Source: a virus (taxonomy: Duplodnaviria; Heunggongvirae; Uroviricota; Caudoviricetes). Taken from it: 18,046 bases of DNA. Below the pieces are notes generated by a model. That model had not been told where the DNA came from, made no database searches, and saw only the letters and a list, made by a program, of their open reading frames with translations. Of this stretch, positions 9,991 to 16,500 are shown piece by piece (the first letter of the stretch is position 1; each line of letters opens with the position of its first letter). The position numbers and the translations under genes are program-made. The DNA is taken from IMG/VR virus record IMGVR_UViG_2802429220_000008, positions 1 through 18,046 of that record, one strand, 5' to 3'.

Positions 9991-10672
9991 CCAGTATTTA
10001 CAGTTTGTTCGTGAGCAACTCATGATTGCCACTGCAGATCTCAGTGGGTCGACAAAAGGCCAGCTGGAAGCCTGGCAGGAAAATGCCCTGTTCGATACAG
10101 GGCGTTACAGACGCAAAAAAATTCGTTACCGCGATGAGGTAACTGGAAAAATGATCACGCGGGATAATCCCCCGATCCAGGGTAAACAATCACTGGCGAA
10201 AGGCTCATCAATTGCGCTGGTCAGTCCTGTTGAGTTTGCAACATCATCGTGGCGGCGTGCCCTTCTGGAACTGGAAGAACATCAGAAGGCGTGGTTGTTG
10301 TGGTGTTATGGCGGAAACATTTGCTGGGAGCATCAGATCGCGATAACGCAGTGGGTGTGGAGTGAATTTAAAACTCAGTCCGGCTCCAGAAAAATTGCAG
10401 TGAAAACGCTGGAGCGTGTGAAGAAGTTGATCTGGCTGGCGGCACAGGATGTCAGAGGATGGGTTACCGGGTGTGAGGTCTACCAGAGACAGGAGCTTGC
10501 CAGACTGTGTGGAGTTAAGCCTGATAACTGGAGCCATAATTATGCGAACTACTGGCGTGAGATGTGCGATATTTTTAAGCGCCTCGATAGAGAATCCTTG
10601 ATTTGCTCCGTGAAAATAAGAGCGCAACAAAAAGCGACCTTTTCACGACGAGATATTGCAAAAGTCAATTAA
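9983..10672 (+). CDS. Late-gene antiterminator Q-like protein (Qin QuuQ / phage 82-type), assigned mainly by position
   Basis: 229 aa directly after rusA and before a short terminated region; start ATG 9983 overlaps the rusA stop with GAGG upstream; no sequence-level confirmation. Confidence 0.5.
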   Translation: MNNQYLQFVREQLMIATADLSGSTKGQLEAWQENALFDTGRYRRKKIRYRDEVTGKMITRDNPPIQGKQSLAKGSSIALVSPVEFATSSWRRALLELEEHQKAWLLWCYGGNICWEHQIAITQWVWSEFKTQSGSRKIAVKTLERVKKLIWLAAQDVRGWVTGCEVYQRQELARLCGVKPDNWSHNYANYWREMCDIFKRLDRESLICSVKIRAQQKATFSRRDIAKVN

Positions 10673-10732
10673 ATCGCGTATGTTTCGTATAAATCTGATA
10701 TTTTGCCGATTTTGTACGCGATGGCAAAGTAA

Positions 10733-10760
10733 GAAAAAACCACCGCTAGGTGGTTTTTTT
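10733..10760 (+). terminator. Intrinsic terminator about 60 bp after the Q-like gene (tR'-like candidate)
   Basis: A-tract, stem ccacc/ggtgg with loop gcta, then 7 Ts; candidate promoter elements TTGCAA (10656-10661) and TATGTT (10679-10684) upstream. Confidence 0.6.
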
Positions 10761-10883
10761 ATGTCCGAAAATCTCGTCAGTACAGTAAACGCGCTGGTGG
10801 TGGTGAATACCGGTCTTTCAGCTTGCTGGCTTTTTTGACAAGAGTTATTGGTGTGTCACGTTAACCGGAAAAGGGAAAAAGAC

Positions 10884-11081
10884 ATGCTGAAACAGCAGGA
10901 TATGACCGAAACCGCCAGAGTGGTGTTTAATGAATTAAGCGTCACTGAACCGGCGACAGTCGGGGAGATTGCGCAGAATACTTATCTTTCACGTGAACGC
11001 TGCCAGTTAATACTGACCCAGCTTGTTATGGCGGGGCTGGCAGACTATCAGTTCGGTTGTTACAGACGCCTTCAGTCCTGA
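10884..11081 (+). CDS. Small winged-helix-like protein (65 aa)
   Basis: MLKQQDMTETARVVFNELSVTEPATVGEIAQNTYLSRERCQLILTQLVMAGLADYQF; start moved to ATG 10884; followed by a terminator. Confidence 0.5.
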   Translation: MLKQQDMTETARVVFNELSVTEPATVGEIAQNTYLSRERCQLILTQLVMAGLADYQFGCYRRLQS

Positions 11082-11091
11082 AGGCTTTTTT
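11068..11091 (+). terminator. Intrinsic terminator
   Basis: Stem gccttcag/ctgaaggc around loop tc, then tttttt; overlaps the stop codon of the preceding small gene. Confidence 0.6.
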
Positions 11092-11232
11092 ATTTGTGGT
11101 AAATGGGCGGCTGGTGGGTGTTAGGGGCACTCACCAGCCATCTGCTCATGCGTCCGGATCACAAGCAAACCTCAGGCCCATCTGCTTTGCGCAAAAGCAG
11201 AATGAGCCTATCAGAGACAGGCTTAATGATCC

Positions 11233-13761: not shown

Positions 13762-13922
13762 CGGTAAAACTGCGTCTGGCCGCTGTGGCACTCCTGCTGT
13801 TTCTGGTGGTGATGGTGGACTTCACCAGCAGGATCATGTCGGTGCTGGCGGATGGAGTGCTGGTGGTCGGTATTGTGGTGGTGCTTTTTCCTTTGGTGAA
13901 AAAGGAGATGTCAGGTAGTTAG
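13758..13922 (+). CDS. Small two-helix membrane protein (54 aa), translationally coupled to the TerB-like gene
   Basis: GTG start overlapping the TerB-like stop (GTGA); GGAGA 8 nt upstream; LLLFLVVMV and VLVVGIVVVLF hydrophobic segments. Below the track size cut-off. Confidence 0.35.
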   Translation: MTVKLRLAAVALLLFLVVMVDFTSRIMSVLADGVLVVGIVVVLFPLVKKEMSGS

Positions 13923-14156
13923 CCGGGTATCAGTCATGCCCTGAAAATTTTAAATGTCTCACAATTCAGACGGTTGACAGTTGTCTGGTTTGCGGGGAGT
14001 TTGTTAAAAGAAACTGGCATGGTGAATCCCCCTGAGCGGAGGGGCATATCAGCGCAGGTGTTTCTACTCTATCCTTTCTGTGCGGGTTCAGGTGCTGATA
14101 CTGAACTCACCGGGAGGCACCCGGCACCATGCAAGAAAAAGAATGTGCATGCAAAC

Positions 14157-14184
14157 ATGCCCCTCTCCGGAGGGGCATTTTTAT
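14157..14184 (+). terminator. Intrinsic terminator
   Basis: Perfect 9-bp stem atgcccctc/gaggggcat, loop tccg, then ttttat. Confidence 0.6.
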
Positions 14185-14397
14185 GGGTAAAAAATGCCCG
14201 AATGGGTTCGGGCAATAGCATGAGATACTGATATTGTTGTGTTGTTATCGTGTGGATTTTAACCAGGGTTTATCAGGCTGCGCAACTGCGTGGCCTTTTT
14301 TCATTTCTTGGGCTGTAGTCCCCGTGTGTCATTCAGGCTTCCGGACTACAGCCCACTCCATATCTGATTTAATACACTATCCCGGCCGGGAGGAATA

Positions 14398-16248
14398 ATG
14401 ACATTTAAACATTATGATGTTGTCAGGGCGGCGTCGCCGTCAGACCTTGCGGAAAAGCTGACACACAAACTGAAAGAGGGCTGGCAGCCGTTTGGTAGTC
14501 CGGTGGCCATAACCCCTTATACCCTGATGCAGGCGATTACAGCAGAAGGTGATGTGGTGGTCAGTGGTGCAACTGAGCCGGAGTGGTACTACGTCATCGT
14601 ACTGGCCGGGCAGTCCAATGCCATGGCTTACGGTGAAGGGCTTCCGCTGCCGGATTCATACGATGCTCCGGATCCGCGCATTAAACAGCTGGCGCGCCGC
14701 AGTACAGTGACGCCGGGTGGGGCTGCCTGCAGATATAACGATATTATTCCGGCCGACCACTGCCTGCATGATGTGCAGGATATGAGTACGCTGAATCATC
14801 CGAAGGCAGACCTGAGCAAAGGGCAGTACGGCTGTGTCGGCCAGGGGTTACATATTGCCAAAAAACTGCTCCCGTATATCCCGAATAACGCGGGGATCCT
14901 GCTGGTACCATGCTGTCGTGGTGGTTCGGCATTTACCCAGGGCGCGGAGGGGACATTCAGTGCGGACACGGGGGCCAGCCAGGATTCGGCGCGCTGGGGT
15001 GTGGGTAAACCGTTATATCAGGACCTGATTGCGCGCACCAAAGCTGCATTACAGAAGAACCCGAAAAATGTGTTGCTGGCGGTGTGCTGGATGCAGGGAG
15101 AGTTTGACATGAGCGCCGCCACCCACGCACAGCAACCTGCGCTGTTTACAGCCATGCTGACACAGTTTCGTGCTGACCTCTCCGTGTTTAACGCGCAGTG
15201 CCATGGTGGCAGTGCTGCAGATGTGCCGTGGATTTGTGGTGACACGACGTATTACTGGAAAAATACATACGCTACCCAGTACGACACCGTGTACGGCGGG
15301 TATAAAAACAGGGAGAGTGAGGGCGTTTATTTTGTGCCCTTCATGACAGACGGTAACGGCGTCAATACCGCCACTAACGCGCCGGCAGAAGATCCGGATA
15401 TTCCGGCATCAGGATATTACGGTGCGGCATCGAGAACGAATGGAAACCAGGTATCATCAAACCGCCCGACACATTTCAGTTCATGGGCGCGCAGGAGCAT
15501 TATTCCGGATCGTCTGGCAACCGCTATTCTGAACGCAGCCGGGCGCACCTCAGCCTTCATCAGTGGTAAGGCACCGGAAATCAAACCCTCGCCCGGCGGC
15601 AACACGCCATCGGGTCCGTCTGCAGATACGTCCGTTCGCACAATCTCCCTGCTGCCGGCAGCCGGAGAGGCTGCTGCGCAGGGCTGGAGCATTAAGGATG
15701 GCGGAATTCAGTTGTCAGATGGTGTATTTAAGATCACCAAGCAGAGCAATAAAACCTGGTCCCTGACGCATCCGGTGGATGACGCAATTACCCTGCTGAC
15801 ACAGGGCGGCAGACTGACCTGTAAGTTCCGCCTGTCAGGCGCACTGACCAACAATCAGTTCGGGCTGGGGATTTATCTGTATACGGATGCTCCCGTTCCT
15901 GATGGTGTGGCGATGACGGGTACCGGTAATCCGTTCCTGATGTCGTACTTCACTCAGACCACTGACGGCAGAGTGAATCTGATGCATCACAGGAAAGCCG
16001 GAAACACGAAGCTGGGGGAGTTCGGCGATTACGGTAACGACTGGCAGACGCTGGAGCTGGTGTTCACCGCCGGCAGTGCCACGGTTACTCCGAAACTGAA
16101 TGGAGTGGCTGGCCCGGCATTCCAGGTTATAAAAGACAGTCTGAAAGTGGGGCTGAATGCGCTGACGTTAACTGACATCACAAAAGGTGCCACGTACGGC
16201 GTTGAGATAGAAAGTCTGGTGCTGGAGATAAATACACTGGCAGCATAA
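14398..16248 (+). CDS. nanS: NanS-p-type sialate O-acetylesterase (DUF1737 N-terminus plus SGNH/SASA esterase domain)
   Basis: 616 aa; N-terminal MTFKHYDVVRAASPSDLAEKLTHKLKEGWQPFGSP; esterase motif VIVLAGQSNAMAYG; occupies the position NanS-p genes hold in Stx phages. Confidence 0.8.
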   Translation: MTFKHYDVVRAASPSDLAEKLTHKLKEGWQPFGSPVAITPYTLMQAITAEGDVVVSGATEPEWYYVIVLAGQSNAMAYGEGLPLPDSYDAPDPRIKQLARRSTVTPGGAACRYNDIIPADHCLHDVQDMSTLNHPKADLSKGQYGCVGQGLHIAKKLLPYIPNNAGILLVPCCRGGSAFTQGAEGTFSADTGASQDSARWGVGKPLYQDLIARTKAALQKNPKNVLLAVCWMQGEFDMSAATHAQQPALFTAMLTQFRADLSVFNAQCHGGSAADVPWICGDTTYYWKNTYATQYDTVYGGYKNRESEGVYFVPFMTDGNGVNTATNAPAEDPDIPASGYYGAASRTNGNQVSSNRPTHFSSWARRSIIPDRLATAILNAAGRTSAFISGKAPEIKPSPGGNTPSGPSADTSVRTISLLPAAGEAAAQGWSIKDGGIQLSDGVFKITKQSNKTWSLTHPVDDAITLLTQGGRLTCKFRLSGALTNNQFGLGIYLYTDAPVPDGVAMTGTGNPFLMSYFTQTTDGRVNLMHHRKAGNTKLGEFGDYGNDWQTLELVFTAGSATVTPKLNGVAGPAFQVIKDSLKVGLNALTLTDITKGATYGVEIESLVLEINTLAA

Positions 16249-16466
16249 TAAAAAAACAGCCAGTACTGACTTTCGTCGGAGAAGTACTGGCTAAGAAGGA
16301 TAGTTGTGTTTCACATCATTTTCAGACTGGACGGTACATTTTCTGACAGATAGTGACGGATGTTGTCAAGATATTGTGTCATTTATAACCTGAATCAGGG
16401 GAGGCCGGAATGTTATCTGGCATTTTTAGCAGAGCCTGAATGCCATAATCACGGCTCCCGGCGTTG

Positions 16467-16500
16467 GCCGCCAGTGGGTGACACTGGCGGCTTTTTTGTT
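16467..16500 (+). terminator. Strong intrinsic terminator 50 bp upstream of the holin gene
   Basis: Perfect 10-bp stem gccgccagtg/cactggcggc, loop ggtga, then ttttttgttttt. Confidence 0.75.

Follow-up and report, generated by a model that had tools for sequence, protein, structure and literature searches.

A probable phage-82-type Q switch ahead of a terminator-punctuated cargo region in a lambdoid Escherichia coli prophage

The 18,046-nucleotide stretch of viral DNA analysed here (IMG/VR record IMGVR_UViG_2802429220_000008; the whole stretch is called the window, and all positions refer to it) is part of a lambdoid Escherichia coli prophage. Our analysis suggests, with a probability of roughly 0.85, that the region between its gene for the antiterminator Q and its lysis genes is the late-operon leader and the cargo ('moron') zone of such a prophage, and that this prophage uses a Q of the phage 82 type. 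The protein genes from Q to the lysis genes all lie on the plus strand and are punctuated by intrinsic terminators (Table 1), which a first-pass annotation of this DNA had read as a sign that the whole cargo region is transcribed by Q-dependent read-through. The core of that proposal is supported by homology to phages 82 and 434 and by conservation across related loci, but the terminators within the cargo are not a single series built to gate the late operon; most of them are mainly the 3' ends of separately acquired cargo units.

The Q protein is, by its sequence, a full-length member of the phage 82 family. It matches the Pfam family PF06323 (Phage_antiter_Q) with an E value of 3.6e-83 (279 bits against a cut-off of 25) over profile positions 1-217 of 220, and in tblastn comparisons it is 66.4% identical to the Q of phage 82, which is biochemically characterised, and 62.9% identical to the Q of phage 434, in both cases over 100% of the length. 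PF06323 was the only Pfam family matched at E <= 0.01, and neither the lambda-type family (PF03589) nor the Q21/Q933-type family (PF06530) was found at that threshold. In a PDB sequence search, Q matched neither the lambda Q nor the Q21 chains, nor any other solved Q structure; the sole match, to a lysin (E 0.23), is attributable to chance, and no structural assignment was made from it. Antitermination activity is a prediction for this protein. The Q-like gene had previously been given as 231 amino acids (aa) long; its identity stands, but the likely start is the ATG at 9983, which gives 229 aa, has GAGG 9 nucleotides (nt) upstream and overlaps the stop codon of rusA, the GTG at 9977 being less likely. 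Two minus-strand features were also observed at this gene: a clean terminator-like hairpin inside the coding region (10085-10103) and, at its end (10650-10665), at the place annotated as paQ in phage 434, a CII-type repeat that is half degenerate, TTGC-N6-TCGT. Together they may be what is left of an antisense RNA unit directed against Q.

Directly after Q, the sequence points to a late promoter, pR', and a pause element of the 82 type. From 11 Q82-family loci, the last part of Q was aligned together with ~130 nt of downstream sequence; the loci comprise the window, an E. coli chromosome, phage 434, prophage PP2 of enteropathogenic E. coli (EPEC), two other E. coli phages, and phages of Klebsiella, Enterobacter, Salmonella and Cronobacter. 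The alignment contains a conserved block made up of TTGCAAA, a 17-bp spacer and TATnTT, which in the E. coli members is followed by AAATCTGATATTTTGCCGATTTTGTA. The hexamers of the predicted pR' and their spacing are kept in 10 of the 11 loci, and the AAATCTGATATTTTGCCGATTTTGTA block is identical across four E. coli Q82-type loci. The -35 hexamer overlaps the last codons of Q, and the same is true in 434. With the start (+1) placed at 10691, TGaTATTTT (10696-10704) falls at +6 to +14, GCC (10705-10707) at +15 to +17 and a T (10715) at +25; the published description of the 82 pR' (PMC5001585) has an extended -10-like element and GCC at +15 to +17, and places the pause at +25/+26, with U at +25. 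In the window, a pause would be expected at the same place, +25/+26 (10715/10716). The likeness to the 82 promoter is one of positional descriptors in that paper and of alignment with 434 and the other Q82-type loci; a text search of the literature with the 82 pR' sequence string returned nothing relevant.

The first hairpin of the region, T1, begins after a gap of 61 nt from the Q stop codon (10672) and occupies +44 to +69 from the predicted start. It had been put forward as a tR'-like candidate, and since the predicted 82-type promoter and pause element stand directly ahead of it, we take T1 to be tR'; the phage 434 record annotates a terminator at the equivalent place. The stem shows a compensatory change, CCACC/GGTGG becoming CCGCC/GGCGG in the closest chromosome (L002), and in more distant Q82-family relatives the stem sequence differs while a terminator is still there. 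Homology to phages with unrelated Q genes starts exactly at the T1 hairpin. This is the boundary to be expected between a specificity module made up of Q, pR' and the pause site and a shared downstream module that has tR' as its first element. As an intrinsic terminator, T1 looks bidirectional.

The switch in the window would operate in the steps established for the Q proteins of lambda and phage 82 (PMC5001585, PMC4914094, PMC7547250). The promoter pR' would fire constitutively from near 10691, and RNA polymerase that retains sigma-70 would pause near +25, at TGaTATTTT-GCC. When Q is absent, the polymerase would resume, stop at tR' and free an RNA of ~70 nt with two hairpins, just as PR' has been described as constitutive and terminated at tR' in lysogens (PMC7547250). 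On induction, Q would bind a putative DNA site at pR', load onto the paused polymerase and make it terminator-resistant, and the modified polymerase would then pass tR' and six further plus-strand terminators to reach the holin and lysozyme genes. In the lysogen, the cargo terminators would let each unit be expressed alone, and the last of them, T6, would in particular bar cargo transcription from the lysis genes. For the window, an active promoter, a paused polymerase, the loading of Q, the efficiency of the terminators and their read-through are all inferred.

Terminator-like hairpins on the plus strand are far more frequent in this region than expected by chance. In a stricter scan of 10656-16547, which accepted a compact single hairpin of at most 30 nt with a free energy (dG) of -10 kcal/mol or lower and a T tract, eight plus-strand sites were found, against 0.32 +/- 0.50 expected and a maximum of 2 in 60 dinucleotide shuffles; a looser scan of the whole window gave 41 sites against 18.9 +/- 5.1 expected. 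The strand bias is strong. Under the stricter thresholds the minus strand of 10656-16547 has one compact site, the terminator of the small RNA (sRNA) AgvB, and a second strong minus-strand hairpin (16257-16293, the terminator of a PasA-like sRNA) exceeds the 30-nt limit of the scan and was found separately. Seven of the eight plus-strand sites are intergenic, and each of the seven has a GC-rich stem of at least 5-7 bp, a loop of 3-8 nt and an immediate T tract, as predicted intrinsic terminators should. The eighth (13008-13028) lies inside an open reading frame (ORF) of 69 aa and contains G-U pairs; it is probably a chance hairpin and was not retained as a terminator. All six plus-strand terminators listed in the first-pass annotation are present as canonical intrinsic terminators, at or within a few bases of the positions given there, and T5b is a seventh that was missing from that list. 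Structure kept by compensatory change is seen for T1 and T6, and T3, T4, T5 and T5b are too conserved for this to be judged.

T6, the strongest hairpin of the region, lies 45-56 nt upstream of the holin start. Among 76 IMG/VR viral contigs that carry this holin at >=96% identity together with enough upstream sequence, all 76 have a hairpin at the same offset, its T tract beginning 47-56 nt ahead of the ATG. The hairpins fall into at least six sequence types, and the gene upstream is not always the same, at least two different ones being seen. RNAalifold predicts 11 pairs for the 14 distinct versions, five of them with compensatory double changes, and the stem in the window has a C-G pair where most relatives have a U-G wobble. 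The spacer between esterase and holin is ~92% identical in phage 434, H-19B and phages carrying Shiga toxin 1 (Stx1), and the 434 record annotates a terminator equivalent to T6. The hairpin is a canonical terminator with a run of five to seven T in 59 of the 76 loci, while in 17 it is kept with a degenerate T tract (for example TCCTGTTG or TTTATATT). Retention of the stem in these 17 loci suggests selection on the stem itself, and would suit a hairpin that is primarily an RNA element for processing, stability or translation timing of the holin mRNA and not a terminator. We find this improbable, given the canonical terminator with five to seven T in the window and in the 59 loci, and given a distance of ~50 nt from the start codon, which is too far for the hairpin to occlude the ribosome-binding site.

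The promoter scan found no promoter-like site between T6 and the holin gene (16493-16547), and the lysis genes should therefore need a terminator-resistant RNA polymerase. T6 may serve as an insulator that keeps the cargo transcription of the lysogen out of the lysis genes. An origin of T6 as the relic tR' of an ancestral Q-pR'-tR'-S arrangement was considered and found to be unsupported: all 28 phage records sharing the spacer have an esterase upstream, and no Q-adjacent copy was found among them. In phage 2B8, a mobile-element gene separates the esterase from the T6 spacer.

A second promoter, serving the lysis genes, had also been suggested, formed by TTGTCA (16363-16368) and TATAAC (16384-16389) with a 15-bp spacer. 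These hexamers are present as described, and the stretch is identical in 434, in PP2 of strain E2348/69 and in strain OkiPb01679, as might be expected if the lysis genes had a promoter of their own, here or elsewhere, and did not depend on Q read-through. The position of the site makes this highly improbable: it lies ~80 nt upstream of T6, so its transcripts would be stopped as well and would provide no bypass. In addition, the 15-bp spacer is unfavourable, and the promoter scan lists no plus-strand promoter anywhere in 16249-16547. The conservation of the stretch is explained by the minus strand, on which the same bases contain a consensus TTGACA (16369 to 16364) and, after a 17-bp spacer, a weak TCAGAA that ends 7 nt before the position aligned with the mapped 5' end of the sRNA PasA.

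The PasA-like sRNA itself (about 16334 to 16250) aligns with PasA of E2348/69, which is located at NC_011601 743499 to 743415 on the minus strand (PMC8550237, Table S6), and the Northern probe used there is matched with ~4 mismatches. Its terminator hairpin on the minus strand has a dG of -18.7 kcal/mol (z -5.10). The gene is unannotated and lies antisense between the esterase stop codon and the holin. According to the literature the 5' end of PasA arises by processing, and TTGACA-17-TCAGAA, with its poor -10 hexamer, is no more than a candidate for the PasA promoter. A recent preprint describes PasA-type genes as adjoining the holin and PasD/STnc100-type genes as lying on the other side of the esterase, and the layout in the window (PasA-like sRNA, esterase, STnc100) is exactly this one.

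The cargo units closed by terminators are the 65-aa ORF, the tRNA cassette, a cassette of two small ORFs, the STnc100 sRNA and the esterase block. The 65-aa ORF ends within T2, which overlaps its stop codon; in a related locus (L001) the T2 stem is kept with a different loop, and in phage SfV a terminator is annotated under the homologous stretch. T3 closes the tRNA cassette, whose candidate promoter (TTGCTG 12294-12299, TATCAT 12317-12322) retains its hexamers in L002 (TTGCAG/TATTAT) with a diverged spacer. T4 closes the two-ORF cassette. Taken with the bases that follow them (12578-12607 and 13177-13206), T3 and T4 have 26 of 30 nt in common, and the pair of small ORFs that they enclose resembles a cassette with a repeated terminator at each end. 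This slot holds different genes in L001 and a toxin-antitoxin-like gene pair in phage PPyecE_EH1910; PADLOC gave no defence-system match for the small ORFs of the window. T5 is the terminator of STnc100 itself and converges on that of AgvB on the opposite strand (14195-14214, dG -12.6 kcal/mol), the two sRNA genes being convergent. T5b, which is 100% conserved in L001 and L002, is an orphan hairpin adjoining AgvB, just beyond the 5' side of that minus-strand gene. Morons are known from downstream of PR', and STnc100 and AgvB make up the convergent sRNA pair that Tree et al. described in the moron site there (PMC4104026). With respect to the marks of a moron (own promoter and terminator, variable presence), the tRNA cassette carries both elements, the T3-T4 slot varies between loci, and STnc100 and AgvB are stand-alone sRNA genes, the membership of these two resting on covariance models and that of PasA, for which no Rfam model exists, on alignment. 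The promoter scan of the window found no promoter belonging to the 65-aa ORF or the methyltransferase.

Three minor observations concern the same units. The middle tRNA gene (12414-12476) is a pseudogene, where the usual phage cassette is Ile-Arg-Arg; relative to OkiPb01679, where the gene is intact, 12 nt including the anticodon arm have been deleted and there are substitutions as well. The L002 copy is intact. A promoter-like site, TTGATC-16-TAAAAT (12875-12902), lies just ahead of the 69-aa ORF within the small-ORF cassette. A perfect inverted repeat of 12 bp, GGGCTGTAGTCC / GGACTACAGCCC, occupies 14310-14354, after T5b and ahead of the start codon of the esterase; its loop is 21 nt long, and it lacks a T tract.

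The assignment of hairpins to cargo units raises the question of whether each terminator is simply the 3' end of an independent cargo unit or sRNA, acting as a stabilising end or Hfq-binding module and carrying no regulatory meaning, in a prophage that may be defective and have lost late transcription. T3 behind a tRNA cassette with its own promoter, T5 as the STnc100 terminator and the tRNA pseudogene are all in keeping with this, and the window is without the immunity and structural regions needed to judge viability. Against it, the window retains Q, pR', the pause element, tR' and the lysis genes in intact form, and the same layout works in the viable phage 434. T1 and T6 do not form the 3' end of an sRNA or ORF in need of one, and T6 goes with the holin, and not with the gene ahead of it, in loci where that gene varies. 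Such an explanation is thus unlikely, and we prefer a Q-dependent late operon into which self-terminated cargo has been inserted.

Several points weigh against this preferred reading. The support for it consists of homology and of conservation across related loci. The predicted pR' scores 8/12 against the sigma-70 consensus and was missed by the promoter scan, whose threshold is 9/12. The Q binding element is putative, and the region around and between the pR' hexamers is conserved in the alignment. T5b has no assigned upstream unit, and termination may be weak in the 17 of 76 loci where the pre-holin hairpin has a poor T tract. The window, in which one tRNA gene has decayed, also does not show whether the prophage is inducible.

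The predicted leader RNA runs from 10691 to about 10760 (~67-70 nt) and folds into two stable hairpins (-25.7 kcal/mol, z -4.66). At the corresponding place, directly 3' of Q82-family genes, Rfam identifies the Salmonella sRNA families IsrK in Gifsy-1 (79.3 bits; L011 1111-1187) and IsrJ in Enterobacter phage CobraSix (62.6 bits; L010 1106-1179). The start of each lies within ~3 nt of where the predicted pR' start would fall in that locus, and both are therefore late-promoter leader RNAs. Like the leader of the window, these RNAs, of 74-77 nt, directly follow a Q82-family gene and end in an intrinsic terminator, but the window leader is not a member of the family by sequence, since 10682-10760 scores 19.4 bits against isrK (gathering score 50; E 0.7). 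The Rfam matches at 10663-10763 to Phe_leader (E 0.87) and isrK (E 0.7) were likewise set aside as too weak for membership.

Two ideas are offered jointly and tentatively, as a pair that we consider somewhat less probable than even: that the pR'-tR' leader is a trans-acting sRNA of the lysogen, and that the T6-type hairpin is a dedicated safety lock on lysis. If so, the leader would be an abundant third, sequence-divergent counterpart of IsrK/IsrJ and StxS in E. coli Q82-type prophages, and the T6-type hairpin would shield the lysis genes from cargo promoters expressed in the lysogen and be selected as part of the holin module. A fixed, covarying terminator ahead of S21-type holins favours the view that a lysis cassette brings its own insulator with it on the upstream side.

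Every element of the region has a described counterpart, and the window is a new mosaic of known modules, not a new kind of system: a Q82-type switch is joined to methyltransferase, tRNA, TerB, STnc100/AgvB, esterase and lysis modules. The phage 82 switch shares with the window the Pfam family of Q (66% identity), a promoter directly after Q, an extended -10-like pause element, GCC at +15 to +17, U at +25 and a terminator within the first ~70 nt. It differs in that the -10 hexamer of the window is TATGTT, where relatives have TATATT or TATACT, in the stem of tR' and in the cargo downstream, which is far longer in the window. Nor is the arrangement special to this DNA, because 434 and EPEC PP2 share the order of Q82-type Q, tR', esterase, terminator and holin. 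In 434 and in PP2 of E2348/69, tR' is annotated, as is the terminator before the class II holin, and the DUF3927 peptide, a PasD/STnc100-type sRNA, the SASA esterase and PasA on the minus strand are also found, with an esterase-holin spacer that is ~92% identical. The window has in addition the 65-aa ORF, the methyltransferase, the tRNAs, the two small ORFs, TerB and AgvB, it is without a 148-nt insert after the esterase stop codon, and its T6 stem has C-G in place of the U-G wobble of 434.

The Stx phages (933W, H-19B, Sakai Sp5/Sp15) resemble the window in carrying cargo between Q and the lysis cassette that is expressed by Q read-through, and in a constitutive PR' that is stopped at tR' in lysogens and yields a short RNA (the StxS sRNA), as proposed here for the window. 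They share its tRNA, esterase, holin and lysozyme modules at 92-97% identity, but they have a Q of the Q933/Q21 type and a leader of 258 nt, against ~70 nt in the window. In these phages stx is located between the tRNAs and the esterase; the window is without stx and has the two small ORFs in that slot. Lambda, with its pR', 6S RNA and tR', follows the same logic, in which the polymerase makes a sigma-dependent pause close to the promoter, Q is loaded and every terminator downstream is read through; unlike the window, lambda has a Q of family PF03589, a pause at +16/+17 and lysis genes almost directly after tR'.

The biology involved is textbook biology, and the results matter little beyond annotation. 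They fix the type of Q, predict to the base where pR', the pause site, tR' and the leader RNA lie, and assign hairpins to cargo units. This helps to predict which cargo may be expressed on induction only (esterase, TerB and the small ORFs in the stx slot), and it helps in the design of reporters.

Table 1. Features of the region from Q to the lysis genes, in order of position (dG in kcal/mol; z relative to shuffled sequences)
Feature	Position	Strand	Details
Q antiterminator gene	9983-10672	+	229 aa from ATG 9983; PF06323
Predicted pR'	10656-10691	+	-35 TTGCAA 10656-10661; 17-bp spacer; -10 TATGTT 10679-10684; start near A10691
Predicted sigma-70-dependent pause element	10696-10716	+	TGaTATTTT, GCC, AT-rich GATTTTGT
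T1 (tR')	10734-10760	+	hairpin A6-CCACC-GCTA-GGTGG-T7; stem 10734-10759; dG -16.1, z -5.35
65-aa ORF	10884-11081	+	phrog_331; weak winged-helix-like match
T2	11068-11091	+	stem 11068-11085; six T follow; dG -10.5, z -3.77
N6/N4 DNA methyltransferase, orphan, type II-like	11233-12291	+	PF01555 E 2e-44; PADLOC MTase_II E 3.4e-159
tRNA cassette with candidate promoter and T3	12294-12601	+	ARAGORN, Rfam
tRNA(CAT)	12332-12407	+	ARAGORN/Rfam
Decayed tRNA-Arg	about 12414-12476	+	uncalled by ARAGORN and Rfam
tRNA-Arg(TCT)	12488-12564	+	ARAGORN/Rfam
T3	12578-12595 (stem)	+	six T follow; dG -13.8, z -4.35
Two small ORFs with T4	12654-13199	+	phrog_2571, phrog_4280
Small ORF, 74 aa	12654-12878	+	phrog_2571
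Small ORF, 69 aa	12931-13140	+	phrog_4280
T4	13173-13193 (stem)	+	T run follows; dG -12.7, z -2.55
TerB-family protein	13330-13761	+	PF05099 E 1.4e-16
DUF3927/TciB-like membrane peptide	13758-13922	+	PF13064 E 5.4e-16; phrog_1470
STnc100 (PasD-related) sRNA	13988-14188	+	Rfam RF02076, 151.6 bits against gathering score 47
T5	14157-14178 (stem)	+	dG -18.4, z -3.07
AgvB anti-GcvB sRNA	14189-14250	-	Rfam RF02702, 96.5 bits against gathering score 56
T5b	14275-14301	+	stem 14275-14296; dG -14.9, z -4.01
NanS-p-like SASA sialate O-acetylesterase, 616 aa	14398-16248	+	PF03629, PF08410, PF20350; annotated likewise in relatives
PasA-like antisense sRNA	16250-16334	-	alignment to E2348/69 PasA
T6	16466-16503	+	stem 16466-16492, 11 bp with 8 GC; tail of six T, G and five T; dG -23.2 (-24.3 with flanks), z -4.90
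Class II (S21-type) holin	16548-16754	+	PF04971 E 8.8e-33; annotation of relatives
DUF1327 protein	16759-17103	+	PF07041 E 3.1e-45
Lysozyme	17154-17687	+	lysis block; annotation of relatives

Over 9900-17800 the window matches Stx-type and related prophages piecewise, at 92-97% identity, with no single record spanning the whole; the best complete E. coli genomes cover 93% of this stretch at ~93% identity. Upstream of the block of DUF968, rusA and Q there is a hok/sok-type module (7793-7967; Rfam sok, 114 bits), which is followed by a strong plus-strand terminator at 8186-8203.

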